This document shows, one piece after another, positions 4,201-29,191 of a stretch of DNA of 43,837 nt. Position 1 is the first letter of the stretch; each line of letters starts with the position of its first letter. The position numbers and the translations under genes are program-made. The stretch comes from Minisyncoccia bacterium (lineage in GTDB: Bacteria; Patescibacteriota; Minisyncoccia; Phycocordibacterales; UBA9973): NCBI GenBank assembly GCA_038322745.1, contig JBBQGF010000002.1, forward strand, positions 1 through 43,837. The letters are read 5' to 3'. The notes below the pieces were generated by a model. That model was not told where the DNA came from, searched no databases, and worked only from the letters and a program-made list of their open reading frames with translations.

Positions 4201-4360
4201 AATATTAAATTAAGGTATTCTTAATAAAATTATATTTAAAAAATCACTTATAATCTATATAAAGCAAATATACTATAATCATATAGGCATTTTAACCTTT
4301 GTTTTTTGTCTATTATAGTAATATAATACAAATACATAAGTATTAAATAATATATATAAT

Positions 4361-13038: not shown

Positions 13039-14274
13039 ATGTTCAAGAATAAAACAATTTCAATAATTTTCTTTACAATATTTATCGATATGCTTGGTTT
13101 TGGTATATTGATACCAGTCATTCCTCTTCTTTTTGCAAGTCCTATGTCGGAATTTTATATGCTTCCAGCTCATATTGATATAAAGACTGGATATCTATTA
13201 TTAGGATTTCTTATTGCTGTATATCCGATAGGACAGTTTTTCTCAACACCTATACTTGGTCAACTATCTGATAAATATGGAAGGAAAAAAATATTAATAT
13301 TATCTATTATTGGAACTTCTCTGTCATATTTTATATTTGCTATCGGTATAGTTACAAAAAATGTTCCGTTGCTTTTTATAGCGAGATTTTTTGATGGATT
13401 AACGGGTGGAAATATTTCTGTAGCTCAAGCAATGATAGGGGATGTGAGTACGAGAGAAACTAGAGCACGTAATTTTGGAATGATTGGAGCAGCCTTTGGA
13501 TTAGGTTTTATTTTTGGTCCATACATAGGAGGGAAGCTTTCTGACCCCGCAGTATTATCATGGTTTTCTGCTTCAACTCCATTTATATTTGCTGGAATAC
13601 TCGCAACTCTTAATATTATTTTCATCACTCTTTTTCTAAAAGAAACAAATAAAAATATTCACAACGAAAAAATAACATGGAGTAGATCATTGAATAATAT
13701 AGGAGTAGCTTATCGTATGAAAGGTATAAATATAATATTCTTGACCAACTTTCTTTATAATGGAGGTTTTACTTTTTTCACAACGTTCTTTTCTGTATAT
13801 TTAATAAATAAATTTAATTTTACTCAAGGGAATATTGGCGAACTATTTGCATATATTGGTTTGTGGGGAATTTTTACTCAAGCAGTTATGACTAGAATTG
13901 TAGCTAAAAAATTTACAGAGGTAAAAGTTATTAAATGGACTCTTATTGGTTCCGGAGTTGCGATACTTGCATATTTTTTACCTCAATACTCTTGGCAGTT
14001 AATATTTATTCCACCATTTATGGGATTGTTCAATGGGCTTTCAATGTCAAATCTCGGAAGTTTATTGTCACATGTTTCGCCTGAAAAGAAGAGAGGTGAG
14101 ATACTTGGAATCAATGCATCTGTATCAGCTCTTGCTCAAGCAATACCAGCATTATTATCTGGTTTTATTGCAGTTATTCTAAAACCTACGACCCCAATAA
14201 TCTTTGCTTCTGTATTTATTCTAATGGGAGCCTTTGTTTTTAATAGATTTTATAAAAATATTCATAATAATTAA
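13039..14274 (+). CDS. MFS transporter (drug:H+ antiporter-like)
   Basis: 411 aa, about 12 TM helices. MFS motif A GQLSDKYGRKKIL and RFFDGLTGGNISVAQAMIGD. Confidence 0.85.
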   Translation: MFKNKTISIIFFTIFIDMLGFGILIPVIPLLFASPMSEFYMLPAHIDIKTGYLLLGFLIAVYPIGQFFSTPILGQLSDKYGRKKILILSIIGTSLSYFIFAIGIVTKNVPLLFIARFFDGLTGGNISVAQAMIGDVSTRETRARNFGMIGAAFGLGFIFGPYIGGKLSDPAVLSWFSASTPFIFAGILATLNIIFITLFLKETNKNIHNEKITWSRSLNNIGVAYRMKGINIIFLTNFLYNGGFTFFTTFFSVYLINKFNFTQGNIGELFAYIGLWGIFTQAVMTRIVAKKFTEVKVIKWTLIGSGVAILAYFLPQYSWQLIFIPPFMGLFNGLSMSNLGSLLSHVSPEKKRGEILGINASVSALAQAIPALLSGFIAVILKPTTPIIFASVFILMGAFVFNRFYKNIHNN

Positions 14275-14313
14275 TTTTATAAAAAAATAACTTTAAAAAC
14301 ACTAGTTTTATGT

Positions 14314-14362
14314 AAAAATCTGTTGAAAATTTTAATTTTTAACAGATTTTTATATTTTTTTT
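14314..14362 (+). terminator. intrinsic terminator
   Basis: 11-bp stem aaaaatctgtt / aacagattttt followed by a T-rich run. Confidence 0.6.
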
Positions 14363-14606
14363 AGGCTTCTAGAAATATCCTTTACTCATCGCTTTTATAG
14401 CAGTACTTTTTAAAAATATTTGACTAATCCCTAACATATTTACATAGTGTTGATTTTAGTTAATTTTTGATTAAATTGTCTTTTATTATCTATAAAGTGG
14501 GGGTATAATATAAGCCCAAAAAGCAATTGGGACAATTATTATCAGCTCCGGTGTAAAATCGGAATCTCGATATAAAAATTATCGAGAATAAATTTTTTTT
14601 AAAAAT

Positions 14607-16949
14607 ATGCCTTCTAAAAAGAAAGTTTCCAGTGCAAAAAAAATAATAGCAAAGGTCGTAGAAAAAAATGAAGTTGCTAAGGAGGAAAAGTTTGTAAAGA
14701 ATAGTTTTATTAAAGGCGTTATAAAAAGAGATGGTGTTACTGTTTCTTTTGATATTGAAAAAGTTACGAATGCCATTAATAAAGCCATGCTTGCAAGTAA
14801 CGAAGGCTCTATGAAAGAGGCAGAGATGGTTGCTAATCGTGTACAGATGGAAATTGTTAAAATAGCTAAGAAATATAAGAACTTTATCCCGACAGTTGAA
14901 GGCCTTCAGGATACAGTTGAACAAGAATTAATGCTCTCAGATTTTGTAAAAACTTCTAAGAATTATATTCTCTATCGTGAAGAGCGAGCAAGACTACGCT
15001 CTCATTCTATAACAGTACCTGATCACGTAAAAAAACTTACAGAGGAAAGTAAAAAATATTTTCGTAATCCACTTTCTGAATTTGTTTACTATCGTACATA
15101 TGCAAAATGGATTGAAGAAGAGGGAAGACGTGAGACTTGGGTAGAGACTATTGATCGCTACGTTGATTTCATGAAAAAAAATCTAGGTAAACTTCTAAAA
15201 GAAAGTGAATATAAAGAAGTTAGAGAGGCAATACTCCATCAAGAAGCAATGCCATCAATGAGATTACTACAATTCGCTGGAGCTGCAGCTGAGAAAACAA
15301 ATGTTTGTGCCTACAATTGTTCTTTTGTAGCACCATCTAAGTTTCAAGATTTCGGAGATATAATTTATATATCTATGTGTGGAACAGGAGTTGGATTTTC
15401 TGTTGAAAGTAAAAACATTCAAGCACTTCCACAAATAAAAAATCAAATTGGAAAAAAATTACCAACATTTGTAGTTCCCGACACAAAAGAAGGTTGGGCA
15501 GATGCATTTGTTCATGGTATGAAGACTTGGTTTGATGGTAATGATGTAGATTTTGATTTTTCGTTACTTCGTCCAGCTGGTGCTCGTCTTAAAATAATGG
15601 GAGGAAAATCATCAGGCCCAAAGCCACTTATTGATTTACTCGGATTTACTCGTGAACGTATAATCCGTCGCCAAGGAAGACATCTTCGTAATATAGATGC
15701 ACACGACATAATTTGTAAGATAGGTGAGTGCGTAGTTTCAGGCGGAGTTCGCCGTAGTGCCCTTATATCATTATCTGATTTAGATGATCAGGATATGCGT
15801 GATGCAAAGAATGGTCAGTTTTGGATAAATGAAGGGCAACGTATGCTTGCAAATAACTCAGCAGTCTATAATACAAAACCTACAGAGACAGAATTCCTTA
15901 AAGAATGGATATCTCTTATGGAATCAGGGTCTGGTGAGAGAGGAATATTCAACCGTGGTTCACTTTATAAATCACTACCTAAGAGAAGATTAGAAAAATC
16001 TGCTGACTACATAGGAGAAATGGGTACAAATCCTTGTGGAGAAATAATCTTACGCTCAAGACAATTTTGTAACCTTTCAGAAGTAGTCGCACGTGCCGAA
16101 GATACAGAAGCAGATTTGATGAGAAAAATTCGAGTTGCGACAATCTTGGGAACATATCAGTCAACTTTGACAAAATTTGGATATTTATCAAAGGAGTGGA
16201 AAAATAATTGTGATGAAGAAAAATTACTTGGAGTATCAGTAACTGGTCAATGGGATTCAAAACTTTCACGTGACCCAATTATGCTAAGTAAACTTCGTCT
16301 TGAGTCAATTCGTATAAATAAAATATATGCAAAGAGATTTGGTATAAATGAATCAACTTGTATTACAGCAGTAAAACCATCAGGAACAGTATCTCAGACT
16401 GTTGATTGTGCATCAGGAATGCACCCACGCCATGCACCTTATTATATTCGTCGTGTTCGTATTTCTGCCACTGATTCATTATTTAAAATGATGAAAGATC
16501 AAGGAGTACCATATCACCCAGAAGTAGGACAAACTCATGATGATGCGAATACTTTTGTTCTTGAGTTCCCAATGAAAGCTCCCGAGGATGCAATATGTAA
16601 AGATGATATTTCAGCTATTGACCAACTTGAACACTGGAAAGTTGTTAAGGTAAATTATACAGAACACAATCCTTCCGTTACTATCTCTGTAGGAGAGAAT
16701 GAATGGATTCAAGTAGCACACTGGCTTTATCAGAATTGGGATATTGTAGGAGGACTTTCTTTCTTACCACGTAGTAATCATGTCTATCAGCTTGCTCCAT
16801 ATGAAGCGATAGATGAAAAAACTTATAAACAATTAGTAAGCAATATGCCAGATTTCGATTTTTCAAAAATTGTTACTTATGAAATGAGAGATGAGACAGA
16901 AGTAAAGAGAGAACTTGCTTGTGTTGCGGGTGTTTGTGATATAGTGTAA
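14607..16949 (+). CDS. nrdJ: class II (adenosylcobalamin-dependent) ribonucleotide reductase with N-terminal ATP-cone
   Basis: 780 aa. ATP-cone-like VIKRDGVTVSFDIEKVTNAINKA, class II core motifs (NCSF, GTGVGFS, SGGVRRSA, active-site TNPCGEI) and a C-terminal Cys pair CVAGVC. Confidence 0.9.
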   Translation: MPSKKKVSSAKKIIAKVVEKNEVAKEEKFVKNSFIKGVIKRDGVTVSFDIEKVTNAINKAMLASNEGSMKEAEMVANRVQMEIVKIAKKYKNFIPTVEGLQDTVEQELMLSDFVKTSKNYILYREERARLRSHSITVPDHVKKLTEESKKYFRNPLSEFVYYRTYAKWIEEEGRRETWVETIDRYVDFMKKNLGKLLKESEYKEVREAILHQEAMPSMRLLQFAGAAAEKTNVCAYNCSFVAPSKFQDFGDIIYISMCGTGVGFSVESKNIQALPQIKNQIGKKLPTFVVPDTKEGWADAFVHGMKTWFDGNDVDFDFSLLRPAGARLKIMGGKSSGPKPLIDLLGFTRERIIRRQGRHLRNIDAHDIICKIGECVVSGGVRRSALISLSDLDDQDMRDAKNGQFWINEGQRMLANNSAVYNTKPTETEFLKEWISLMESGSGERGIFNRGSLYKSLPKRRLEKSADYIGEMGTNPCGEIILRSRQFCNLSEVVARAEDTEADLMRKIRVATILGTYQSTLTKFGYLSKEWKNNCDEEKLLGVSVTGQWDSKLSRDPIMLSKLRLESIRINKIYAKRFGINESTCITAVKPSGTVSQTVDCASGMHPRHAPYYIRRVRISATDSLFKMMKDQGVPYHPEVGQTHDDANTFVLEFPMKAPEDAICKDDISAIDQLEHWKVVKVNYTEHNPSVTISVGENEWIQVAHWLYQNWDIVGGLSFLPRSNHVYQLAPYEAIDEKTYKQLVSNMPDFDFSKIVTYEMRDETEVKRELACVAGVCDIV

Positions 16950-16972
16950 TTATTGAAATAAAATAGATTCAT

Positions 16973-17045
16973 CCAGAGGGTATGAAAATTTTTTACTAAA
17001 AATTTTCTGAAGTTTTCGCCCCGTCGGGCTCAAAACCCCCTTTGG
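16973..17045 (+). repeat. structured intergenic element, copy A (three-way junction; unclassified)
   Basis: P1 is ccagaggg / ccctttgg. P2 is a perfect 10-bp hairpin gaaaattttt-tact-aaaaattttc. P3 is gccc-cgtc-gggc. The architecture and P3 loop match copy B at 17805-17909. Confidence 0.45.
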
Positions 17046-17077
17046 ATAAACTATTTTTATTTCAATTAAATAATCTA

Positions 17078-17599
17078 ATGAAAAAATCAGTTAAATATAT
17101 AATAGTTTTTTTGTCAGCCTTTATTATAAGGCTAATGCCATTTAGAGCTCCAAATGTGGAGCCTATTATGGCATCTGTTATGCCAATAGGTAAAGTCTAT
17201 GGTGGATTAATGGCGTTTATGTTTGGATTTATTAGTATTGTTTTATTTGATTCTATAACATCTGGATTTGGTATCTGGACATTAATCACAGCTTTTTCTT
17301 ACGGTACACTTGGATTAGGAGCTCACTATTATTTTAAAAACAGATCAGGCCGTGTAAATTATGCTATATATGCAGTTGCAGCAACTATCTTTTATGATGC
17401 TGTTACAGGACTTACTGTTGGACCACTATTTTTTCACCAATCATTTATGGTATCGCTTGTTGGTCAAATTCCATTTACTGCACTACACTTGCTAGGCAAT
17501 GTATCTTTTGCTATAGTTCTCTCACCAGTAATTGAAAAATGGATAGTGAAAGAAGAAGTGAAAGTAGTCAGTATAGAGAAAACTGTGTTAGTAAATTAG
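17078..17599 (+). CDS. small polytopic membrane protein, putative vitamin (cobalamin) transporter component (ECF-S/DUF6580-like)
   Basis: 173 aa from the ATG (MKKSVKYIIVFL...); the tracked TTG start at 17042 lies inside a hairpin. About 5-6 TM helices. The N-terminal RLMPFRAPNVEPIMA motif is recalled from DUF6580-type putative transporters. Context: between nrdJ and a B12 riboswitch. Confidence 0.45.
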   Translation: MKKSVKYIIVFLSAFIIRLMPFRAPNVEPIMASVMPIGKVYGGLMAFMFGFISIVLFDSITSGFGIWTLITAFSYGTLGLGAHYYFKNRSGRVNYAIYAVAATIFYDAVTGLTVGPLFFHQSFMVSLVGQIPFTALHLLGNVSFAIVLSPVIEKWIVKEEVKVVSIEKTVLVN

Positions 17600-17620
17600 T
17601 TGTATTTTAAAATTTAAATT

Positions 17621-17706
17621 AATGTATTTGGAAATGAGGTTAGATTCCTCTACTGTGCCGCAACGGTAATACCCCGAAAAGGGGATAAGTCCGGTCTTAA
17701 TACATT
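17621..17706 (+). promoter_or_regulatory. cobalamin (AdoCbl-type) riboswitch aptamer
   Basis: P1 is aatgtatt / aatacatt. The core tGGAAAtGAGGTTAGATTCCTCtACTGtGCCGCAACGGTAA, then hairpin CCCCgaaaaGGGG, then AAGTCCGG, resembles the conserved cobalamin-riboswitch core and B12-box. Matched by eye only. Confidence 0.65.
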
Positions 17707-17750
17707 GATGTTTCCCGAGCAGGAGAATATCTCTAAAATATTTAGACATA

Positions 17751-17787
17751 AAAAACTTCTGCTCACACAGAAGTTTTTTAATTTTTA
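17751..17787 (+). terminator. intrinsic terminator (likely riboswitch expression platform)
   Basis: Stem aacttctg / cagaagtt with loop ctcaca, followed by ttttttaattttt. The upstream segment gagcagga could pair with ctgctc as an anti-terminator. Confidence 0.65.
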
Positions 17788-17804
17788 TATAAAATAGTGA
17801 TTGG

Positions 17805-17909
17805 AGCCAGAATAGCTTCTCTTAGAGGACACGAATATTTTCCTGCTGGAAAATTTCTCTGCTCGGCCCGTCGGCCTGCGCAAGTTCCTATAATAGAACT
17901 ATTCTGGCT
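17805..17909 (+). repeat. structured intergenic element, copy B (long inverted-repeat stem plus two tip hairpins)
   Basis: Outer stem agccagaatag / ctattctggct, extended by tctcttagagga / tcctataataga with 2 mismatches. P2 is attttcc-tgct-ggaaaat. P3 is ggcc-cgtc-ggcc. Confidence 0.45.
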
Positions 17910-17936
17910 ACAATATAATTGAATTAAACACAACAC

Positions 17937-18440
17937 ATGCAAAATAAAAGATACATATTTATAGGGATAATAGTACTAATAATAATTAGCGGTTTTTTAT
18001 ATTTGAAAAAAGAAAATCAGATATCCTTAGTAATTCCTTATCAGCAAAACTATAATCAAGAAAAGATAGAAAATAAAATACCAGCCCCTGTAATAAATTT
18101 AAAGAAAATAGAAAATAAACAAGAAATATATAATACAAAGAAAATAAAGGTTGGATTAGTCGTTGAGGGGAAAGAATACAATATTGAAACAATAGAAGGA
18201 TCAACAGTTTTTGAAACGATGCTACAAATTAAAAATAATAGCACAGAAGATAACCATTTTGATTTTAAATACAGAGATACTGCAGGATTAGGAAGTTTTA
18301 TAAATGAAATTAATGGAGTTGCTGGAAAACCTGGTAAATATTGGATTTATTATGTGAATAATGTAAAAGCACAAATTGGTGTATCAAAATATATATTAAA
18401 TGAAGGGGATATTATTAATTGGAGCCAAGAAGGTATTTAA
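17937..18440 (+). CDS. membrane-anchored DUF4430 (transcobalamin beta-domain-like) protein
   Basis: 167 aa. N-terminal TM helix, then GSTVFETMLQ...GLGSFINEINGVAGKPGKYWIYYVNNVKAQIGVSKYILNEGDIINW, the DUF4430 pattern shared with the C-terminal domain of transcobalamin/intrinsic factor. Confidence 0.75.
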   Translation: MQNKRYIFIGIIVLIIISGFLYLKKENQISLVIPYQQNYNQEKIENKIPAPVINLKKIENKQEIYNTKKIKVGLVVEGKEYNIETIEGSTVFETMLQIKNNSTEDNHFDFKYRDTAGLGSFINEINGVAGKPGKYWIYYVNNVKAQIGVSKYILNEGDIINWSQEGI

Positions 18441-18444
18441 AATT

Positions 18445-20601
18445 ATGAAAAAAAATATTTACAAAAAGTTTATTATTTTAGGGATACTAAGTTTTGTTTT
18501 ATTAGGTTTTAATTCTGTTTTTGCAGAAGACGATATAACTCCACCTGTTATTACTCTGAATGGTGCAAGTAGTATCTCTATATTTGTAAATGAAAATTAT
18601 ACAGACCCTGGAGCAACTGCTATAGATAATATAGATGGAAATATAACTTCAAGTATCCTAAAAAGTGGAAATGTAGATTCTAGTATTATAGGAATTTATA
18701 CGATTACATATGATGTTTCAGATACAGCTTCAAATAATGCACAAACAATCAAAAGGATAGTAGAAGTAAAACCAAAACCAAAAGCAGAATTTATAATTCG
18801 TAATGGGGATTCTATTATATATAATGGTTTTATAGAGCTTCCTTCTATTGGAACTATTAAAATTCCTGATAAAGATGAAGTTGAACATAATATAGATTCT
18901 CGTAGTGTACTTGCTCTTCTTTATACTATTGATCAGAACAGAGATGAATTTTTGATTCCCGACTTAGAATATAATAGTGGGTTTGGGTCTCTATATTTAA
19001 AGTGTTTAATCCCTAAAGATACCGAAAGTCTTTGTAATGACTGGCAATATGTTGTGAATAATAAATATCCATCTGTAGGTATGGATAAAAATTCTTTATC
19101 TGGGGATGAGAAGATTTATATTTATTTTGGACCACAAAACAAAATATTACTTAATAAAAACTCTATAAATACAGAAGAAAATTTAACTGTAACATCTCAA
19201 AAATATGACTATGAAAATAATCTTTGGCTGGTTCGTACTGGGGTAACTATTGGAGTTACAAAACCAGATCCAAACAATTCTTGGTCTCCCAATGATGATA
19301 TAAAATCAAAAGTAGATGATACTTCAGGAGTAGTGACTTTTTTATCAATAACTGAAGGAGAATATGATGTTGGAGTAAAAGAAGATTATTATTGGCCAAC
19401 AGAGAAACTTATTGTAATTAAAAAGGTTTTAGAAAATAATGGTTCAGGTGGTGGAGGTTCTACTCCTATTTCAATAGAAAAAATATTTTCTATTCAGAAT
19501 GCTTTAAATTTTATTTCTTCAAAACAAAAAAATGATGGGTCATTTGGGTCCGATATATATACTGACTGGGCCGCGATAGCAGCATCAGCAGGAAATTCAT
19601 ATACACTTAAATCAAGTATTTTAAATTATTTAAAATCAAATCCAATAGATTCATCTATTTTGACTGATAATGAGAGACGAGCAATGGCACTCATGGCTCT
19701 CGGTGTGAATCCTTACAATGGGACAGATATAAATTATATTAAAAAAATTGTTGATAGTTTTGATGGAATACAATTTGGAGATATGTCATTAATCAATGAT
19801 GATGTATTTGCATTAATAGTGCTTTCAAATGCAGGATATAATAGTAATGATGAAATAATTAAAAAAGATATAAATTATTTAATATCTAAACAATCATCTA
19901 GTGGAGGATGGGGTAGTGTTGATATGACAGCCGCTGGAATTGAGGCATTGAGAAGTTTCAGTGGATTAGATGGTTTAACAAACTCTATTTCAATTGCAGA
20001 AAATTATTTAATTTCAAATCAAAATATAAATGGTGGTTTTGATAATTCTTTTTCAACTTCTTGGGTACTTCAATCTATAACAAAAGAAATAAACATATTA
20101 AAAGCGAAAAACTATTTAGCTAATAATCAACAAGTAGATGGAGGACTTGAAAATGTTTCAACAGATATAGATACTAGAGTTTGGGCTACCTCATATGCAA
20201 TACCAGCTATTCTTCATATGTCTTGGAATGATATATTGAATGATTTTTCAAAACCAGAAGAAGTTTCAACTGCATTATCAGATATAAAAAAAGAAGAAAT
20301 TAAAAATATTGTAGTTGAACCAGTAATAATAATTGAAGAAAAGAAAAAAGAAGTTAAAATTGCAGAAAATAAAGAAGAAAATAAAAGTACTATTAAAACA
20401 GTTCAAATAATAAAGAGAAATAAAGTAAAAATTAAACAAAATGATTCTTCATTAACTACTCAAATTTCAGATTATACCCTTAATCAAATGGCCTCTGCTG
20501 GTTCATTGGTTACTCCAGTACCTAATATAATTATATCTACTTTAAATCACATATGGGTTTATATAAAATTACCTTTTATTTGGTTTTGGAGCTTTCTCTA
20601 A
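18445..20601 (+). CDS. large secreted multidomain protein: Ig-like (DUF5011-type) + DUF4430 + Ig-like + prenyltransferase-like alpha/alpha toroid + K/E-rich linker + C-terminal hydrophobic anchor
   Basis: 718 aa from the ATG at 18445, with signal peptide MKKNIYKKFIILGILSFVLLGFNSVFA. The DUF5011-type domain reads ITLNGASSISIFVNENYTDPGATAIDNIDGNIT. The second DUF4430 domain reads GFGSLYLKCLIP...WQYVVNNKYPSVGMDKNSLSGDEKIYIYFG. Toroid repeats include QKNDGSFG, SSGGWGS, NINGGFD and QVDGGLE. C-terminus IWVYIKLPFIWFWSFL. Confidence 0.7.
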   Translation: MKKNIYKKFIILGILSFVLLGFNSVFAEDDITPPVITLNGASSISIFVNENYTDPGATAIDNIDGNITSSILKSGNVDSSIIGIYTITYDVSDTASNNAQTIKRIVEVKPKPKAEFIIRNGDSIIYNGFIELPSIGTIKIPDKDEVEHNIDSRSVLALLYTIDQNRDEFLIPDLEYNSGFGSLYLKCLIPKDTESLCNDWQYVVNNKYPSVGMDKNSLSGDEKIYIYFGPQNKILLNKNSINTEENLTVTSQKYDYENNLWLVRTGVTIGVTKPDPNNSWSPNDDIKSKVDDTSGVVTFLSITEGEYDVGVKEDYYWPTEKLIVIKKVLENNGSGGGGSTPISIEKIFSIQNALNFISSKQKNDGSFGSDIYTDWAAIAASAGNSYTLKSSILNYLKSNPIDSSILTDNERRAMALMALGVNPYNGTDINYIKKIVDSFDGIQFGDMSLINDDVFALIVLSNAGYNSNDEIIKKDINYLISKQSSSGGWGSVDMTAAGIEALRSFSGLDGLTNSISIAENYLISNQNINGGFDNSFSTSWVLQSITKEINILKAKNYLANNQQVDGGLENVSTDIDTRVWATSYAIPAILHMSWNDILNDFSKPEEVSTALSDIKKEEIKNIVVEPVIIIEEKKKEVKIAENKEENKSTIKTVQIIKRNKVKIKQNDSSLTTQISDYTLNQMASAGSLVTPVPNIIISTLNHIWVYIKLPFIWFWSFL

Positions 20602-20742: not shown

Positions 20743-21120
20743 ATGAAAATTAAATTTATTATATTTGTTGTTGTAGTAGTCTTATTTGTTGGAGGTTTAG
20801 GTTTTTATATGAGTAAAAAAGGTGTAGGACCTGCTAATCTAGATGGATTTGCTAAATGCCTCAAAGATAATGGGGCAGAATTTTATGGAACATTTTGGTG
20901 TCCTCATTGTCAGGACCAAAAGAAATTATTTGGAACAGCTAAATCCTCATTACCATACATCGAGTGCTCCACACCAGATGGAAAAGAGCAAAACCAAGTC
21001 TGTAAGGATAAAAAGATAGAAGGTTATCCAACTTGGATTTTTAAAGATGGGACACAACTTTCTGGAAAACAATCACTCCAAACATTAGCAGATAAAACAC
21101 AATGTGTACTTCCTAAATAA
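20743..21120 (+). CDS. membrane-anchored thioredoxin-like protein (CPHC), of the type fused to bacterial VKOR
   Basis: 125 aa. N-terminal TM helix, FYGTFWCPHCQDQKKLFG and GYPTW motifs. Confidence 0.75.
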   Translation: MKIKFIIFVVVVVLFVGGLGFYMSKKGVGPANLDGFAKCLKDNGAEFYGTFWCPHCQDQKKLFGTAKSSLPYIECSTPDGKEQNQVCKDKKIEGYPTWIFKDGTQLSGKQSLQTLADKTQCVLPK

Positions 21121-21121
21121 T

Positions 21122-21682
21122 ATGCCAGCATACGTAGAAATAATTAATAAGCTTTTATCACTTGGGACAATATTCCTTCAGGTAGTTATTTTATCTATTT
21201 TAATTGGACTTATTTTTTTTCGTAAAAGAGAAAATCCATATTTATTATTTTTTAAAAAATATACTTTTATTCTCGGATTCCTCTCGGGGTTAGGTGCATT
21301 TATACTCTCAATATTTTATTCTGAAATAATTGGATTTCCTGTATGTGAACTTTGTTGGATACAAAGAATATTCTTGTATCCACAATTAATTTTATTTGGA
21401 ATGGAATTATACAAGCGGGATAAATCAATGGTTGATTTTTCTCTAGTTTTTGCAACTATCGGTTCACTTATGTCTATATATCATGTATATGTAGAAAATG
21501 GTGGAACATCAGGACTTTCTTGCGCAACTGGTACTTCATTATCTGGAGCAAATCAAGCATCTTGTGCAGTTCGTTATATATACGAATTTGGTTATATAAC
21601 AATGCCGATAATGGCACTAACACTATCTCTTTTTATAATTATTATTTTAGTAAATTATAAGTATATTACTAAAGTTAAATAA
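21122..21682 (+). CDS. DsbB/BdbC-family disulfide bond formation protein (5-TM variant)
   Basis: 186 aa from the ATG at 21122. First Cys pair CELCWIQRIFLYPQ matches the BdbC signature. Second pair is SCATGTSLSGANQASC. There is an extra N-terminal TM helix. Confidence 0.75.
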   Translation: MPAYVEIINKLLSLGTIFLQVVILSILIGLIFFRKRENPYLLFFKKYTFILGFLSGLGAFILSIFYSEIIGFPVCELCWIQRIFLYPQLILFGMELYKRDKSMVDFSLVFATIGSLMSIYHVYVENGGTSGLSCATGTSLSGANQASCAVRYIYEFGYITMPIMALTLSLFIIIILVNYKYITKVK

Positions 21683-22290: not shown

Positions 22291-24054
22291 ATGCATCTTG
22301 ATGAGGCAACAATATTAAAACTCCTAGATACTTCTGGCTTAGTAAACAAAAAAGATGTTGCTATGGCACAAAAAAAAGCAAAAGAAACTAATCAGACATT
22401 AGGTTCTGTTTTAATGAGTGATGGAAAATTAACTGAAAAAGATTGGAATAGTATGCAAGCTTTTTCTTTAGGCATTCCTTTTGTCAGTTTAAAAGGAGTA
22501 CATATAGATATTGATGTTTTAAATTTAATACCTGAACCTATTGCCCGTAATAATAATATTATTGCTTATAATAAAGGAGCTCAAGGTCTCGAAGTTGCAA
22601 TGCTTGATGTTGATAATCTTCCTGTTATTGATTTTATAAAAAAGAAAGTTGGAATTCGAATACTTCCTCGTATGACAAGTTCTGATTCCATAAAGGAAGC
22701 ACTTTCTCTTTATAAAAAAAGTTTACAAGCTGATTTTGAAGATATTATAAAAAAAGAAACTGGTTCATTAAAACCAGTTGTAGATAGCTTTCCTTTTGGA
22801 GAAAAAAATAATACTAGTGAGAAAACTGAAAAAGAGCTAGCTGAGGATTTACCTATAGTAAAGATTGTAGATACTCTTGTTTCTCATGCTATATCACAAG
22901 GTTCTTCTGATATCCATATTGAACCAGGGGAAGACTCATTAATTGTTAGATATCGCATAGATGGAATTTTGCATGATGCTATGGTACTTCCAAAAGATAC
23001 TGCTCCTGGAATAGTTGCTCGCATAAAAGTTCTTTCAAATTTAAAACTAGATGAGAAACGTTTACCCCAAGATGGTAGATTTAAAATTGTAAACGACCTA
23101 GGTAGAGTTTCATTTCGTGTCTCTACTCTACCTACATATTTTGGTGAGAAAACAGTTATTCGTATATTGAGAGAAAATGCAAAGGGTTTTTCCCTTGAAG
23201 GTCTTGGTTTCCATGGTGAAGCACTTGAGAGAATTCATAGAGGAATGAAAAAACGTAATGGAATGCTATTAACAGCTGGACCTACTGGTTCTGGTAAAAC
23301 AACAACTCTCTATACAATGCTTGATATATTAAATACACCAGATGTAAATATTTCTACAGTAGAGGATCCTATCGAATATCAAATGGCTAGAATAAATCAA
23401 ACTCAAACAAAAGCAGAAATTGGATTAACTTTTGCGAATGGTCTTCGAACTCTTCTTCGTCAAGACCCAGATATAATAATGGTAGGAGAGATTCGTGATG
23501 GAGAGACAGCTAGTCTTGCAGTTAATGCTTCTCTAACTGGACACCTTGTTTTATCTACTATCCATACTAATTCTGCAGCTGGTGCTATCCCACGTATGGT
23601 AGATATGGGAGTTGAGCCATTTCTAATCGTTTCTACTGTGAAAACTGTTATAGCCCAACGTTTAGTTCGTAAACTTTCAGAAGAAAAAGAACAATACTTT
23701 TTAAGTGAGGGAGAAATGTTAGCTCTTAAAAAAGTTGTCAATTTAGATATAGTTCTCGAATCTCTTAAAAAAGAAAAAATAGTAGAAGAAAATATAACTT
23801 GGGAAAAAATACCATTTTACAGACCAAAACCAAATAAAGATTCACCTGATGGATATAAAGGACGAGTTGGAATTCATGAAGTACTTGAGGTTAGTTCAAC
23901 TATAAAAGAGATGATATTAAAAAGTGCTCCAACTGATGATATTGAAGCAAAAGCAAAAGAAGAGGGAATGATGACGATGTTAGAAGATGGAATATTTTTA
24001 GTAGCGAGTGGAGTAACTTCAACAGAAGAAGTGTTACGTGTGGTTTCAGAATAA
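22291..24054 (+). CDS. pilB: type IV pilus / type II secretion assembly ATPase (PilB/GspE family)
   Basis: 587 aa. N-terminal GspE_N-like domain, Walker A GPTGSGKTTT, Asp box, Walker B IIMVGEIRD, His box LVLSTIHTN. The protein contains no cysteine at all. Confidence 0.9.
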   Translation: MHLDEATILKLLDTSGLVNKKDVAMAQKKAKETNQTLGSVLMSDGKLTEKDWNSMQAFSLGIPFVSLKGVHIDIDVLNLIPEPIARNNNIIAYNKGAQGLEVAMLDVDNLPVIDFIKKKVGIRILPRMTSSDSIKEALSLYKKSLQADFEDIIKKETGSLKPVVDSFPFGEKNNTSEKTEKELAEDLPIVKIVDTLVSHAISQGSSDIHIEPGEDSLIVRYRIDGILHDAMVLPKDTAPGIVARIKVLSNLKLDEKRLPQDGRFKIVNDLGRVSFRVSTLPTYFGEKTVIRILRENAKGFSLEGLGFHGEALERIHRGMKKRNGMLLTAGPTGSGKTTTLYTMLDILNTPDVNISTVEDPIEYQMARINQTQTKAEIGLTFANGLRTLLRQDPDIIMVGEIRDGETASLAVNASLTGHLVLSTIHTNSAAGAIPRMVDMGVEPFLIVSTVKTVIAQRLVRKLSEEKEQYFLSEGEMLALKKVVNLDIVLESLKKEKIVEENITWEKIPFYRPKPNKDSPDGYKGRVGIHEVLEVSSTIKEMILKSAPTDDIEAKAKEEGMMTMLEDGIFLVASGVTSTEEVLRVVSE

Positions 24055-24081
24055 TTATTTATATTATTAAACAATAAAAAA

Positions 24082-25296
24082 GTGAAATTTAAATTTAAAG
24101 AACAAAATAAAGAAGGAGAAACTATTGAAGGCATATCGGAATCACCTGATACATTTTCCTTAGCTCGAGAAATTAGAGAGAGAGGCAGTATTCCTATTTC
24201 AATTACAGAATTTAATGAAAATACTGTTAAGTCAATATTTTCTTTTAATTTTTTAGGAAAAGTTTCACTAGCAGAAAAAATAATGTTTACTAATAATCTA
24301 AGTGGAATGCTTACAGCTGGACTATCATTAACACGTGCACTTGGAGTTTTAGAAAAACAATCAACAAATAAAGTATTAAATAATATAATAAAAAGTCTTA
24401 TTGATGATATAAATAAAGGAGGAACTCTTTCTGCTGGTATGAAAAAATTCCCAAAAGTTTTTTCTGGGGTTTTTGTCTCGATGGTTCACTCAGGAGAAGA
24501 ATCAGGAGGACTTCCTCGTACGCTTACTGAAACTGGTATAACATTAAAAAAGACATACGATTTAAATAGAAAAATAAAAGGTGCTTTGATATACCCAAGT
24601 GTTATAATAGGCGCAATATTTATGATTGGTGTCTTGATGATGATTTATGTTGTTCCTACTTTAACCAAAACTTTTAAAGATTTAGGAACAGAATTACCTG
24701 CTTCTACTAAGTTTATTATTTTTATTTCAGATACATTAAGTGAACATTTTATACTATTTTCACTAGCTATTTTATCAATAATTTCTTCAGGTGTTTTATT
24801 TGCTAGACTTAAATTTACACAGAAATATTTTGACCTCTATATTTTAAAAGTTCCATTTTTAGGAGCACTTATCAAAGAAATGAATACAGCTCGTACAGCT
24901 CGTACACTTTCTTCATTATTGGGTTCAGGGGTTGATCTTTCAAGGTCTCTTAGTATAACTGAAGAAGTACTTCAAAATGTTCACTACAAAGAACTTATTC
25001 GTAAGTCTATAAATTCTATTGAAAAAGGAATTCCATTGTCTGTTGCTTTTAAAGAGAATACTAATTTATATCCTGTTATGGTTGGAGAAATGATAGAGGT
25101 CGGAGAAGAAACTGGAAAACTTTCAAGCATGTTGATGGATATAGCTACTTTCTATGAATCAGAAGTTGATGAAAAAACAAAAAATCTATCTGTTATTATT
25201 GAACCAGTATTAATGATTTTTATTGGAATAGCGGTAGGATTCTTTGCAATATCAATGATTAGTCCAATGTATTCAGTTATGGATAATGTTAATTAA
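24082..25296 (+). CDS. pilC: type IV pilus platform protein (PilC/GspF family)
   Basis: 404 aa, GTG start. Two GspF repeats and 3 TM segments. Directly follows pilB. Confidence 0.85.
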   Translation: MKFKFKEQNKEGETIEGISESPDTFSLAREIRERGSIPISITEFNENTVKSIFSFNFLGKVSLAEKIMFTNNLSGMLTAGLSLTRALGVLEKQSTNKVLNNIIKSLIDDINKGGTLSAGMKKFPKVFSGVFVSMVHSGEESGGLPRTLTETGITLKKTYDLNRKIKGALIYPSVIIGAIFMIGVLMMIYVVPTLTKTFKDLGTELPASTKFIIFISDTLSEHFILFSLAILSIISSGVLFARLKFTQKYFDLYILKVPFLGALIKEMNTARTARTLSSLLGSGVDLSRSLSITEEVLQNVHYKELIRKSINSIEKGIPLSVAFKENTNLYPVMVGEMIEVGEETGKLSSMLMDIATFYESEVDEKTKNLSVIIEPVLMIFIGIAVGFFAISMISPMYSVMDNVN

Positions 25297-25300
25297 TAAT

Positions 25301-27106
25301 ATGGAAAAATATATTAAAATTAATAAAAATGAAGGATTCTCTTTAATAGAAACTATTTTTGCTATTTTTATTTTTATTGCAATCGCAACTGCAGTATATA
25401 CTGGTTTTGTTGGGATACAAAAAGTCATGAATGTCATAAGAGTTAAAGGGATTATGACAAATCTTGCAAATGAACAGTTTGAAATATCCCGCAATTTATC
25501 ATATCAAGACGTTGGAACAATAAGTGGTATTCCTGCTGGTGTTTTATCACAAAATAAAACTGTTTCAAGAGATAATAAAAATTTCAATATAGAAACAACG
25601 GTCCGTAGTGTAGATGATCCTTTTGATGGTACTTTTAATGGGACCCCTCGTGATTTATCACCTGGTGATATGAAAATTGTTGAACTAACTATTACTTGCA
25701 CTTCATGTGGTGCAAGTATGTCTTCGGTTTCTTTTACTACAAAAATTGCACCAAAAAATCTCGAAACAGCATCTACTAATGGGGCACTTGTAATTAGAGT
25801 TTTTGATGCGTCTGGATTACCAGTATCTGATGCAGAGGTAAATATTATAAATAATAATGTAAATCCTAAAATTAATCTAACAGATAATACAGATATCAAT
25901 GGTACTTTAACTATTGTTGATGCACCACCATCTTCAAATGGATATCAAATCATTGTTACAAAAACTGGATACTCTACTGATCGCACATATCCAGTGGCTG
26001 GTCCAGAAAATCCACATCCAACAAAACCAAATGTCACTGTTGTGATACAACAAGTTACTCAAATCTCTTTTACCATAGATAAAACAAGTACTATTAATTT
26101 TTCAACAGTAAATAATCAATGTACTCCAACTTCAGGATTTGATTTTAATATGATAGGTAGTAAATTAATAGGTACAATTCCAAATACATATAAATATTCA
26201 AATTCACTTATTACAAATAATAATGGAGAATTATCCCTTACAGGAATTGAATGGGATACATACACACTTTCAGGGATAGATAGTTTATATGACATTATTG
26301 GAACTAGTCCATTATTATCACTTGGTATTAATCCAAATGTAGTACAAAATATGGAAATAGTTACAGCACCTAAAAATGGCAATAGGCTACTTGTTGTAGT
26401 TAGAGATCAATCAACTGGATTACCTATTACTGATGCAGTTGTTACTCTTACAGGACCTAGTAATTATTCAAAAACTCTTACCACGAATGAAGGATTTCTT
26501 ACTCAGACTGATTGGTCAGATGGTAATGGTCAGGAAGCATTTGGTGCATATAATAAATTTTTAATACAAGATGGGAACATAGATACAACTAAATCCACAG
26601 GGAACTTGAGTCTCAAAAAAGTCTCTTCAAATTATTTACCTAGTGGAAATATTACCTCATCTACTTTTGATACTGGGTCTTCTAGTCATTTTAGACAGAT
26701 TATTTGGAGTTCAATAGTGCAACCTCCACAAACAGGTACTTTAAGTGTTAAAATTCAAATAGCAACAAATAACGATAATTCAACTTGGAATTTTGTAGGA
26801 CCAAATGATACTTCATCTACTTATTTTACTTCAACTAATCAAAATATTAACTCATCTCATGATGGAGATAGGTATTTTCGTTACCGTTTATATCTATCTA
26901 CTGAAAATACTTTATTTACCCCTACTATCTCTGATGTATCTTTCACTTATACATCATCTTGTATTCCACCTGGGCAAGTATCCTTTTCTTCACTATCAAC
27001 AGGTAATTATACAGTATCAATAAGTAAAACAGGTTATCAAAATACATCAAAAACTGTTAGTATATCAAGTAGTTGGACTAAACAAGAAATGACAATCTCG
27101 CCATAA
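25301..27106 (+). CDS. giant pilin-like protein (prepilin N-terminus plus carboxypeptidase-regulatory-like beta-sandwich repeats)
   Basis: 601 aa from the ATG at 25301. Class III signal KNEG/FSLIETIFAIFIFIAIA (Glu at +5). Repeated modules such as VIRVFDASGLPVSDAEVNI...GTLTI...GYQIIVTKTGYS. Confidence 0.7.
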   Translation: MEKYIKINKNEGFSLIETIFAIFIFIAIATAVYTGFVGIQKVMNVIRVKGIMTNLANEQFEISRNLSYQDVGTISGIPAGVLSQNKTVSRDNKNFNIETTVRSVDDPFDGTFNGTPRDLSPGDMKIVELTITCTSCGASMSSVSFTTKIAPKNLETASTNGALVIRVFDASGLPVSDAEVNIINNNVNPKINLTDNTDINGTLTIVDAPPSSNGYQIIVTKTGYSTDRTYPVAGPENPHPTKPNVTVVIQQVTQISFTIDKTSTINFSTVNNQCTPTSGFDFNMIGSKLIGTIPNTYKYSNSLITNNNGELSLTGIEWDTYTLSGIDSLYDIIGTSPLLSLGINPNVVQNMEIVTAPKNGNRLLVVVRDQSTGLPITDAVVTLTGPSNYSKTLTTNEGFLTQTDWSDGNGQEAFGAYNKFLIQDGNIDTTKSTGNLSLKKVSSNYLPSGNITSSTFDTGSSSHFRQIIWSSIVQPPQTGTLSVKIQIATNNDNSTWNFVGPNDTSSTYFTSTNQNINSSHDGDRYFRYRLYLSTENTLFTPTISDVSFTYTSSCIPPGQVSFSSLSTGNYTVSISKTGYQNTSKTVSISSSWTKQEMTISP

Positions 27107-27110
27107 AATA

Positions 27111-27722
27111 ATGTTAAATTTTAAAAAAATTAAAGGTTTTACTTTATTAGAAACTGTTATAAGTATTGCTATTTTTTCCTTAGTTATAGGTCTTGTTAGT
27201 TTATTTGCTAGAGATATTTTTTATTATGGAAGTATTTTTTCTGGAGGTTTAAGTGCCTACGATGAATCTAAAAAAGTTCTTCAACCAATTGCATCTGAAA
27301 TTCGTTCATCATCTCCTTCATCTTTGGGTTCATATCCAATCGAAACTGCAACTGATAATAGTTTTATTTTTTTTGCAGATATAAATAGTGATGGATTAAA
27401 AGAAAGAATCAGATATTTTCTTTCAGGAACAACTTTTAAGAAAGGTGTAATAACTCCAACAGGAAACCCGCTCTTATATATAGTAAATAATGAAGTGATT
27501 ACTGATGTTGTTCATAACATTAAAAACAATGGAACACCTATATTTAATTATTATAATACTAGTTATAATGGTAATACTGCATCATTGGCACAACCAGTAA
27601 TGGTCATAGAAATACGATTAATAAGAATCACATTAATTATTGATACTGATCCAAATAGGTCACCAGTCCCAGTAACTGTTTCAACTCAAATAAACTTACG
27701 TAATCTTAAAGATAATTTATAA
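27111..27722 (+). CDS. pseudopilin / minor pilin
   Basis: 203 aa. Prepilin motif KIKG/FTLLETVISIAIFSLVIGL. Confidence 0.7.
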   Translation: MLNFKKIKGFTLLETVISIAIFSLVIGLVSLFARDIFYYGSIFSGGLSAYDESKKVLQPIASEIRSSSPSSLGSYPIETATDNSFIFFADINSDGLKERIRYFLSGTTFKKGVITPTGNPLLYIVNNEVITDVVHNIKNNGTPIFNYYNTSYNGNTASLAQPVMVIEIRLIRITLIIDTDPNRSPVPVTVSTQINLRNLKDNL

Positions 27723-29191
27723 TGTATTATTTAAATAATAAAAATAAATATAATAGTGGAGTTGTACTTCTGAATGTACTTATTTTTTCTGTTGTTGCTG
27801 TAATGTTTATAGTATTATATTCTGGATGGGTTTCTTATAGTATTAAATTGACAAGAAAAACCTTAGCCAAAGAACAAGCTTTTCAAATTGCTGAATCGGG
27901 GGTTGATTATTATCGTTGGCACTTAGCTCATGTATCAAATGATTTTAAAGATGGAACAAATACAAATGGACCATATACACATAATTATTATGATAAGGAT
28001 GGTAATATTATTGGTAGTTTTATTTTAACAATCACTCCACCTATAATAGGCTCCACAATTGTTACAATTAAATCAGAAGGACATGTTATTGATTTTCCCT
28101 CAATAAAAAGAACTATTCAAACCCGCTTAGCCATTCCTTCTTTTGCAAAATACGCCATTGTAGCAAACGATTTTATGCGTTTTGGAGAGGGAACTGAAGT
28201 TTTTGGACCGATACATTCAAACAAAGGTATTAGATTTGATGGATTAGCTCACAATATTGTTACAAGTGCTGTTGCTACTTATGATGATCCTGATCACTCA
28301 GGAGGAAGTGAATTTGGAGTTCATACTCACTTAAATAATCCAGGCCCTACAATTAATGATTCGTTTCGTTCTCAAGAAGCATTACCTACAAACCCAGTTC
28401 CTAATAGAAGCGATGTTTTTATTGCAGGTCGCCAATTTCCAGTTCCACAATCTGATTTTACTGGTATTACAAATGATCTCTCTACCATTAAAACAAATGC
28501 ACAATCAAGTGGAATTTATCTAGCATCCTCTGGTTCAATGGGATATCATATAATTTTAAAAGTAAACGACACTTTTGATTTATATAAAGTTAAAAGTTTA
28601 ACAGCTGCATCAAGTAGTTGTTCAAATAGTTCGAGTACAAATGATGCAACATGGGGAACATGGAGTATTAAAACAGAAACATTTGTAGCAAACTATAATA
28701 ATCCCAGTAATGGTTTAATATTTGTTGAGGATAATATTTGGTTAGATGGTAAAATTAATACAGCGAGGTTGACGATTGCAGCAGGTAAATTCCCAGATAA
28801 TCCAAGTACCAGAAAAAGTATATTTATAAATAATGATTTACTATACACAAATTATAATGGCTTAGATATAATTGGTCTTATTTCTCAAGAAGATATATCT
28901 GTAGGAATGGAGAGTCCTGATACACTTCGTATTGATGCAGCATTAATGGCAAATAATGGGAGAATAGGAAGACATTACTATAGTAGTTCTTGTCCTTATA
29001 GCAATCGTAATAGTCTTACTTTATACGGCATGATAGGTAGTAGTGATAGATATGGTTTTGCATTTACTGATGGTACTGGTTATGATATCCGTACTATTAC
29101 ATATGATGCAAATTTATTATATGGACCACCACCTTCTTTTCCTTTAACTTCTAATAAATATTCTACTATTTCATGGGATGAAATAGAGTGA
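27722..29191 (+). CDS. PilX-like large pilus-associated protein (N-terminal hydrophobic helix, no Glu5)
   Basis: 489 aa. TAATG overlap with the upstream pilin gene. N-terminus NSGVVLLNVLIFSVVAVMFIVLY is followed by a large Gly/Asn/Ser-rich domain. Confidence 0.55.
   Translation: MYYLNNKNKYNSGVVLLNVLIFSVVAVMFIVLYSGWVSYSIKLTRKTLAKEQAFQIAESGVDYYRWHLAHVSNDFKDGTNTNGPYTHNYYDKDGNIIGSFILTITPPIIGSTIVTIKSEGHVIDFPSIKRTIQTRLAIPSFAKYAIVANDFMRFGEGTEVFGPIHSNKGIRFDGLAHNIVTSAVATYDDPDHSGGSEFGVHTHLNNPGPTINDSFRSQEALPTNPVPNRSDVFIAGRQFPVPQSDFTGITNDLSTIKTNAQSSGIYLASSGSMGYHIILKVNDTFDLYKVKSLTAASSSCSNSSSTNDATWGTWSIKTETFVANYNNPSNGLIFVEDNIWLDGKINTARLTIAAGKFPDNPSTRKSIFINNDLLYTNYNGLDIIGLISQEDISVGMESPDTLRIDAALMANNGRIGRHYYSSSCPYSNRNSLTLYGMIGSSDRYGFAFTDGTGYDIRTITYDANLLYGPPPSFPLTSNKYSTISWDEIE

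Follow-up and report, generated by a model that had tools for sequence, protein, structure and literature searches.

A stretch of 43,837 nucleotides from a Minisyncoccia bacterium (contig JBBQGF010000002.1; hereafter the window, 43.8 kb) carries a group of plus-strand genes that we consider likely to be a cobalamin (vitamin B12) acquisition and use locus of a Nomurabacteria-like Patescibacterium, in which two surface proteins form a B12-repressed corrinoid capture system feeding a membrane transporter of the CbrT family. The locus consists of nrdJ, for a ribonucleotide reductase (RNR) dependent on adenosylcobalamin (AdoCbl), a cbrT-like gene, an AdoCbl riboswitch, and the genes for a small (167 aa) and a large (718 aa) surface protein; we refer to the riboswitch and the two surface-protein genes as the cassette. 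That this is a cobalamin locus, with B12-regulated surface proteins that combine a transcobalamin-beta-type domain with an alpha/alpha toroid, holds on the basis of synteny, riboswitch linkage, and profile and fold searches. For this genome the analysis covered the window, and all features listed in a first-pass annotation of the sequence (nrdJ, a membrane protein, a riboswitch with terminator, a DUF4430 protein and the 718 aa protein) were found in place.

The riboswitch aptamer is located at positions 17604-17767 on the plus strand. It is a full-length match to Rfam family RF01482 of the cobalamin clan (model positions 1-149), scoring 59.9 bits against a gathering score of 50, and its counterparts in relatives either score 50-64 bits against RF01482 or match RF01689 or RF00174. 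Covariation among 59 distinct aptamer sequences agrees with the fold: 88% of cells were paired, 18 of 30 pairs showed compensatory changes, and the score was 0.365, compared with at most 0.087 for slid controls. An intrinsic-terminator-like hairpin of 13 bp with a T-run then occurs on the same strand (17749-17780, the whole element being annotated as 17749-17790); the 5' arm of this hairpin is partly shared with the final aptamer helix. Both parts of the predicted element, cobalamin riboswitch and terminator, are thus borne out. Because of the terminator, the riboswitch probably acts as an OFF switch with the hairpin as its expression platform; we infer this regulatory logic from the sequence. 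A second riboswitch before nrdJ or cbrT was not detected in positions 14200-18000 (E ≤ 5), nor in any related locus, and the cbrT-like gene is outside riboswitch control.

To place the locus in a comparative context we used the best 80 of 247 species-representative genomes that encode a relative of the large protein. These best 80 relatives all belong to Patescibacteria (Nomurabacteria, Paceibacteria, Falkowbacteria, and unclassified members). In 77 of the 80 loci the small DUF4430 gene immediately precedes the large one. Seventy-five loci had enough upstream DNA to be tested for a riboswitch, and a covariance model built from nine Rfam-confirmed aptamers identified one in 61 of them, in every case on the coding strand and shortly before the DUF4430 gene. 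Re-scanning the 14 negative loci with Rfam added one more (L072), bringing the total to 62 of 75. The cbrT and nrdJ genes adjoin the cassette in 38 of 80 loci (25 in the order cbrT-nrdJ and 13 in the order nrdJ-cbrT), and elsewhere the cassette stands alone among unrelated housekeeping genes. This suggests that the riboswitch and the two surface-protein genes are a conserved, co-regulated unit, and the synteny and riboswitch association that the first-pass annotation had proposed looking for across Patescibacteria do recur there. In 21 loci nrdJ and the riboswitch are separated by a gene for a PduO-type cobalamin adenosyltransferase (PF01923, 148-154 bits; for example L035, 3065-3682, and L017, 2869-3426), followed in three of these 21 by a histidine-phosphatase gene that may be CobC-like; the window contains neither of the two. 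The arrangement of cbrT, nrdJ and pduO in relatives reproduces the nrdJ-cbrS-cbrT-pduO cluster of Lactobacillus delbrueckii (PMC5997447). One locus has a different arrangement of the cassette, with the riboswitch (L023, 4762-4914) directly upstream of the large gene and no small DUF4430 gene.

The first gene of the locus, nrdJ (14607-16949, plus strand), encodes a class II, AdoCbl-dependent RNR of the monomeric ribonucleoside-triphosphate reductase (RTPR) type, with Pfam matches to ATP-cone, RNR_Alpha and RNR-II_ins_dom. The ATP-cone is N-terminal, and the B12-RNR insertion domain (PF21995) scores 34 bits against a cut-off of 27. The closest solved structure in a PDB search was the AdoCbl-dependent RTPR of Lactobacillus leichmannii (1l1l, E = 1e-51), in agreement with the initial identification of nrdJ as encoding a class II enzyme. 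As the protein scores below the cut-off of the NCBIfam equivalog TIGR02505 (289.3 compared with 340 bits), we class NrdJ on its profile matches as a divergent RTPR member with an added ATP-cone.

The cbrT-like gene (17078-17599, plus strand) lies within an open reading frame spanning 17042-17599. The ATG at 17078, which gives a protein of 173 aa, is the likely start because homologues are 172-174 aa long. The protein matches PF07155, a family of energy-coupling factor (ECF) S-components (31.8 bits, cut-off 26.7), and many Patescibacteria encode versions of it with 70-83% identity. When representative proteins were searched exhaustively, 231 clusters of this family emerged. A profile built from 33 diverse members had a sole match among 177,635 PDB sequences, 6fnp_A (E = 5.9e-9, 147 of 178 profile positions covered), which is the 182 aa membrane protein chain of the ECF-CbrT vitamin B12 transporter (PMC5997447). 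The motifs PNV(E/Q)P and GFGIWTL are common to the CbrT-like protein and the characterised CbrT. A guess that the small membrane protein belongs to DUF6580 is also supported, with matches in nine of the 33 family members. Judged by these matches, the 173 aa protein is an ECF S-component of the cobalamin-specific CbrT family, and its context with nrdJ, pduO and the riboswitch cassette predicts that it binds and transports cobalamin. In one related locus (L082), a strong DUF6580 S-component gene (3785-4339, 154 bits) comes directly after the large gene.

The small surface protein is encoded at 17937-18440 on the plus strand. It has a single N-terminal hydrophobic helix as a membrane anchor, a linker of approximately 60 aa, and a DUF4430/SLBB domain (PF14478, 49.2 bits, cut-off 23.8), as had been described for a membrane-anchored DUF4430 protein at this position. 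A profile of its family built from 23 members matched only the beta domains of transcobalamin and intrinsic factor in the PDB, weakly (best E = 0.013). On profile evidence it is a clear member of the DUF4430/SLBB family and a homologue of the transcobalamin beta domain.

The large surface protein gene (18445-20601, plus strand) has more than 500 homologues. An AlphaFold model computed with 52 homologues in the alignment (mean predicted local distance difference test score (pLDDT) of 83.5) begins with a signal-type helix (aa 2-20), and N-terminal signal-type segments are present in 51 of 52 family members. This is followed by an Ig-like domain (18547-18771, aa 35-109; PF16403, 69.6 bits; PDB matches 2kpn and 4hmc), an SLBB/DUF4430-like beta-grasp domain (18781-19152, aa 113-236), a beta-sandwich (19162-19419, aa 240-325), a disordered Gly linker (GSGGGGS, aa 330-342), an alpha/alpha toroid of 12 helices (19492-20235, aa 350-597), and a disordered stalk rich in K, E and I (aa 608-694) with a C-terminal hydrophobic tail (aa 695-718), which together occupy 20266-20598. 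All of the domains in the first description of this protein are therefore present and in the order given, but the C-terminal anchor is only weakly hydrophobic and the DUF4430 domain falls under the Pfam cut-off. The tail, modelled as a helix at aa 695-717, is aromatic (Kyte-Doolittle maximum of 1.25) and departs from the standard pattern of a transmembrane helix; in 19 of 52 relatives this position is taken up by a canonical transmembrane helix together with a basic tail. It is probably an envelope or membrane anchor. The window's clade ends, at 20527-20598, in a conserved aromatic motif of approximately I(W)xxIKxPFxWLxxxLGF, and another clade ends in NWFxRLLxxIFxIF. This aromatic ending may be a signal for anchoring or sorting that is specific to the lineage.

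Assignment of the beta-grasp domain is less clear than that of the small protein and draws on several comparisons. Among the 52 homologues, 18 match PF14478 in this region at E ≤ 0.01 (best E = 4e-13), and an hhalign comparison with the family of the small protein gave a probability of 71% (E = 3.7e-5, 83 columns). The modelled domain has a helix (residues 155-165) followed by a hairpin (169-177/182-190), and this helix-then-hairpin layout is the defining feature of the transcobalamin-like SLBB clade (PMC1796856). A search of the PDB with the profile of the domain returned no meaningful match and no transcobalamin. The large protein has only two cysteines, C187 and C197; this domain contains both, and across the family they hardly vary.

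Transcobalamin, intrinsic factor and haptocorrin clamp B12 between a toroid and an SLBB domain. When modelled alone, the toroid of the large protein was predicted with high confidence (pLDDT 95.4, predicted template modelling score (pTM) 0.92) as an alpha6/alpha6 toroid that is superposable on the transcobalamin alpha domain. It carries invariant polar motifs (LTDNER, FDGxQFGD, NDD[IV]F and xVDxTA). In a Foldseek search, transcobalamin and haptocorrin were the second group of matches (E = 3.5e-5 to 5.5e-4, query template modelling score (TMq) 0.59-0.68; the best of them, at E = 3.5e-5 to 4e-5 and TMq 0.61-0.66, include transcobalamin 7qbg_A with E = 3.5e-5 and TMq 0.66 and haptocorrin 4kki with E = 4e-5), ranking behind class II terpene cyclases, which are taken up below. 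Intrinsic factor matched with E = 1.5e-3 (TMq 0.62), and thioester domains and the beta subunit of farnesyltransferase with E of approximately 5e-3. The toroid of the window had no match to Cobalamin_bind (PF01122), the transcobalamin alpha-domain family, at E ≤ 0.01. Pfam matches among the 52 homologues were to SQHop_cyclase_C (50), TED (32) and PF01122 (29), the last of these being weak (best E = 2.5e-7). We considered PF01122 membership and do not claim it for the toroid, whose profile favours squalene-hopene cyclase. The SLBB-like domain and the toroid thus each share a fold family with the corresponding half of transcobalamin, but the toroid cannot be assigned to the alpha-domain family itself.

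The large protein is therefore built from the two fold types that also make up transcobalamin, intrinsic factor and haptocorrin of mammals (PF01122 alpha and PF14478 beta), but differs from transcobalamin in three respects. Firstly, transcobalamin has an N-terminal toroid and a C-terminal beta domain, whereas the AlphaFold model has the SLBB-like domain, a beta-sandwich with the Gly linker, and then the toroid, the reversed order that had been noted from the sequence. Secondly, transcobalamin is soluble, whereas the large protein is membrane- or envelope-anchored. Thirdly, the toroid sequence is nearer to terpene-cyclase repeats. The earlier description of surface proteins built from transcobalamin parts thus applies to the SLBB/DUF4430-type domain and to the alpha/alpha toroid fold, but by sequence and by fold the nearest relatives of the toroid are terpene-cyclase repeats. 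Similarly, the suggested structural comparison with transcobalamin did give a superposition of the toroid, but one that ranks second to the cyclases.

We infer corrinoid binding by the surface proteins, hand-off to CbrT, and the energising of transport, in the following scheme. NrdJ would need AdoCbl to make deoxyribonucleotides, and nrdJ and cbrT would be expressed regardless of B12. When AdoCbl is plentiful, the riboswitch, whether operon-internal or in the 5' untranslated region, would end transcription, so that the costly capture proteins are off and the upstream nrdJ and cbrT genes stay on. When B12 is scarce, the cell would display the stalked large protein and the membrane-proximal small protein. 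The large protein on its flexible stalk would pick up corrinoid that is free or comes from a host, possibly with the help of the small protein. The corrinoid could be clamped, as in transcobalamin, between an SLBB domain (that of the large protein itself or that of the small protein) and the mouth of the toroid, which is lined by the residues of the invariant polar motifs. It would then be handed to CbrT, which would bind cobalamin in the membrane and carry it inward, and adenosylation would be carried out by PduO, which is encoded nearby in relatives and not in the window.

Several results weigh against a capture system of this kind, some of which are given below with the alternatives to which they belong. 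The beta-grasp domain of the large protein itself scores only 19.8 bits against the PF14478 cut-off of 23.8, so the profile search for DUF4430 that the first-pass annotation had in mind succeeds for the small protein but not for the large one. The placement of the SLBB-like domain relative to the toroid is not reliably modelled (pTM 0.45). No riboswitch was detected in 13 of the 75 testable loci, and no adenosyltransferase was found in the window. For bacterial proteins that combine SLBB and toroid domains, B12 binding is as yet a prediction. Finally, neither the window nor any of 85 related loci contained genes for EcfA, EcfA' or EcfT. The original statement that the window shows no ECF energising genes is accurate as regards the energising module, but an ECF component is present, namely the CbrT-family S-component. 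Tandem nucleotide-binding-domain ATPases near the cassette in two relatives (L018 and L082) were considered as an ECF module and rejected, as they are ABC-F translation factors (NF000355, 316 and 393 bits). Transport could be energised by a shared ECF module encoded elsewhere in the genome, or CbrT could work alone as BtuM does. BtuM of Thiobacillus denitrificans is an S-component-like protein that imports B12 in an organism without an ECF module (PMC6072759), and would be a precedent if the patescibacterial CbrT works alone. BtuM was not matched by the CbrT-like profile in the PDB search, which places it in a separate S-component family, and it also differs in having no associated surface binders.

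This allows a bolder version of the scheme, in which B12 is taken up with no ECF module at all: a stalked, transcobalamin-like two-protein surface relay would load a solitary CbrT that is the sole supply for the sole RNR, and scavenged B12 would gate DNA synthesis and, with it, growth on a host or in a community. We regard this version as possible but doubtful. If it is true, an operon-internal riboswitch would separate "always on" use genes from "on demand" capture genes.

The alternative that survives best is that what the surface proteins bind is not complete cobalamin but another tetrapyrrole or corrinoid, such as heme, cobinamide or other cobamide precursors, with B12 regulation reflecting broader salvage. 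The experimental link of the nearest studied operon is to heme rather than B12: in Lactobacillus sakei, lsa1836-1840 is an ECF operon with separate secreted transcobalamin-alpha-like and transcobalamin-beta-like proteins, its deletion affected heme uptake, and Lsa1839 and Lsa1840 were proposed to capture heme (bioRxiv 10.1101/864751). CbrT also carries cobinamide (PMC5997447), and the CobC-like candidate next to pduO in three loci would fit salvage of precursors. Against this, an AdoCbl-class riboswitch controls the cassette in approximately 80% of loci, the cassette clusters with nrdJ, cbrT and pduO and not with heme genes, and profile scans of the window proteins identified no heme-related gene. 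We therefore consider another ligand unlikely.

We give still less credence to the possibility that the surface proteins sequester or sense B12, as an extracellular reservoir or a means of competitive hoarding, while CbrT transports it independently. The cassette is away from cbrT or nrdJ in 39 of 80 loci, as independent action would allow, and roles of this kind have been proposed for some surface binders of Bacteroides, with BtuJ1 and others described as reservoirs of the vitamin outside the cell. Repression by AdoCbl, however, fits a scavenging device that is needed under scarcity, and the presence of cbrT beside the cassette in just under half of the loci points to functional coupling.

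The remaining alternative concerns the toroid. Class II terpene cyclases were the first Foldseek matches (E of approximately 1e-6 to 2e-5, TMq 0.62-0.75), and the toroid profile matched squalene-hopene cyclase among PDB sequences with E = 2.5e-14, compared with approximately 1.6 for transcobalamin. The large protein could accordingly be a toroid-superfamily enzyme (a terpene cyclase or prenyltransferase with envelope isoprenoids as substrates) or a thioester defence protein resembling alpha2-macroglobulin and thioester-containing proteins (TEPs), with only an indirect connection to B12 regulation. Squalene-hopene cyclase and drimenyl-diphosphate synthase are the top sequence and fold matches, one Asp of the toroid lines up with the middle Asp of DxDD, the cyclase motif, and NCBI names homologues as "terpene cyclase/mutase" or "prenyltransferase/squalene oxidase repeat" proteins. 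However, DxDD (D.DD) occurs nowhere in the large protein, where the aligned motif is SVDMTA, conserved in the family as x[VIL]D[MLFI]T[ASG]. Class II terpene cyclases have a two-toroid (beta-gamma) active site, and the large protein has a single toroid of 12 helices. As for a thioester protein, TEP1, C5 and alpha2-macroglobulin, which likewise have beta-sandwiches and a toroid, were Foldseek matches of the whole 718 aa model, with TM scores of 0.2-0.28. We rejected this likeness as a multi-domain artefact: the toroid has no cysteine and hence no CGEQ thioester, both cysteines being in the SLBB-like domain, and the TED match covers 39 residues of the large protein with a score of 23 bits. As the large protein is secreted or anchored outside the cell, and enzyme roles leave its pairing with the DUF4430 gene (77/80) and the riboswitch (62/75) unexplained, we regard this alternative as very improbable. 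Because of the riboswitch linkage, the NCBI names "terpene cyclase/mutase family protein" and [quoted passage not shown] are probably misleading for this family.

B12 capture by surface proteins of this architecture had been predicted before. Burroughs, Balaji, Iyer and Aravind defined the SLBB superfamily in 2007 and described bacterial fusions of SLBB and toroid domains, with the toroid at either end, in Gram-positive bacteria and some archaea (PMC1796856). Those proteins had additional Ig domains, and their operons held a further, paralogous SLBB gene, with CbiO/CbiQ-like genes as neighbours; their hosts lacked B12 synthesis, B12 scavenging was predicted, and the proteins were proposed as prokaryotic counterparts and ancestors of transcobalamin (PMC1796856). 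The patescibacterial proteins share with them an SLBB domain fused to a C-terminal toroid (as in the Bacillus example), Ig-fold domains, signal peptides, a second SLBB gene in the operon, and a predicted role in B12 scavenging by a host that lacks B12 synthesis (PMC1796856). They differ in that the 2007 proteins are usually beside genes for a CbiO/CbiQ-like ECF module, which is absent near the patescibacterial cassette, and have an LPXTG anchor where the large protein has a stalk and C-terminal hydrophobic tail (PMC1796856). The patescibacterial neighbours are instead cbrT, nrdJ and, in relatives, pduO, and an AdoCbl riboswitch controls the cassette directly. The swapped domain order is consequently not new, since the architecture, the second SLBB gene, the link to ECF-type genes and the prediction of B12 scavenging were all published for Gram-positive bacteria (PMC1796856). 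What the present analysis adds is the patescibacterial lineage, the systematic control by AdoCbl riboswitches, the split regulation inside the nrdJ/cbrT cluster, and the lack of a nearby ECF module. A literature search found no description of a riboswitch-controlled SLBB and toroid B12 capture system in Patescibacteria or the candidate phyla radiation (CPR), in line with the initial suggestion that such a system was uncharacterised in CPR-type bacteria.

Other known systems resemble parts of the locus. ECF-CbrT of L. delbrueckii has been characterised biochemically, and CbrT was first predicted to be a B12 transporter from its cluster with nrdJ, cbrS and pduO (PMC5997447). Its S-component is homologous to the CbrT-like protein and likewise clusters with nrdJ, and with pduO in 21 patescibacterial relatives, but it uses a defined shared ECF module (PMC5997447), of which none was found in the patescibacterial loci, and the riboswitch-controlled surface cassette is an addition of the latter. 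The L. sakei lsa1836-1840 operon also unites an ECF S-component with secreted transcobalamin-like parts; it differs in having the alpha-like and beta-like parts on separate proteins, in encoding EcfAA' and EcfT, and in having no reported riboswitch (bioRxiv 10.1101/864751). BtuG and BtuH of Bacteroides are likewise surface-exposed, high-affinity B12 capture proteins in B12 uptake loci, but these binders have unrelated folds (a beta-propeller in BtuG, and another, DUF4465-type, fold), a TonB-dependent BtuB partner, and a diderm envelope.

Directly after the large gene, profile searches identified a gene for a membrane-anchored thioredoxin-like protein with a WCPHC motif (20743-21120, plus strand) and one for a DsbB homologue (21104-21682, plus strand). 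In 29 of 69 related loci a thioredoxin-like or DsbB gene follows the large gene at a distance of no more than 5 kb. As the sole two cysteines of the large protein are the invariant pair in the SLBB-like domain, the two genes may encode a dedicated disulfide-forming pair, tentatively oxidative-folding helpers for this cysteine pair. Just downstream, at 22291-29191, is a type IV pilus or type II secretion-like set, which is conserved among the closest relatives and comprises genes for a T2SSE ATPase, for a T2SSF platform protein and for a pilin that carries a methylation motif at its N-terminus.

Two copies of a structured palindromic element of approximately 95-115 nt are also present; one separates nrdJ from cbrT (16952-17066), and the second (17800-17914) follows the riboswitch terminator and precedes the DUF4430 gene. 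The element consists of a variable outer stem, an A/U hairpin (GAAUAUUUUCCUGCUGGAAAAUUUC), a GC hairpin (CGGCCCGUCGGCC), and then GCGCAAG. Close relatives lack it at these two spots. The copies have folding z-scores of -6.6 and -5.2. A metagenome scan for the GC hairpin was dominated by coding sequence for ABC Walker-A motifs, and filtering left approximately 13 true further copies in low-GC metagenome contigs, with compensatory changes in 20 of 26 predicted pairs. Copies are intergenic and occur in either orientation relative to neighbouring genes, and there was no Rfam match at E ≤ 5. The element looks like a repeat of the repetitive extragenic palindromic (REP) or miniature inverted-repeat transposable element type, or a bidirectional terminator. 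An open reading frame for an IS200-like Y1 transposase is located at 38666-39328 (PF01797, 41 bits). REP-associated tyrosine transposase (RAYT)-type Y1 enzymes mobilise REP elements, and the transposase might be related to the palindromic repeat of the locus.

CPR bacteria, including Patescibacteria, are mostly uncultured and obtain most vitamins from other organisms. A B12-repressed capture cassette beside a B12-dependent RNR points to cobalamin as a concrete growth requirement, in a family of loci that extends to at least 247 species genomes. The linkage to AdoCbl riboswitches is the strongest available in silico evidence for the 2007 prediction, and the locus provides small, tractable proteins for its first biochemical test (PMC1796856).

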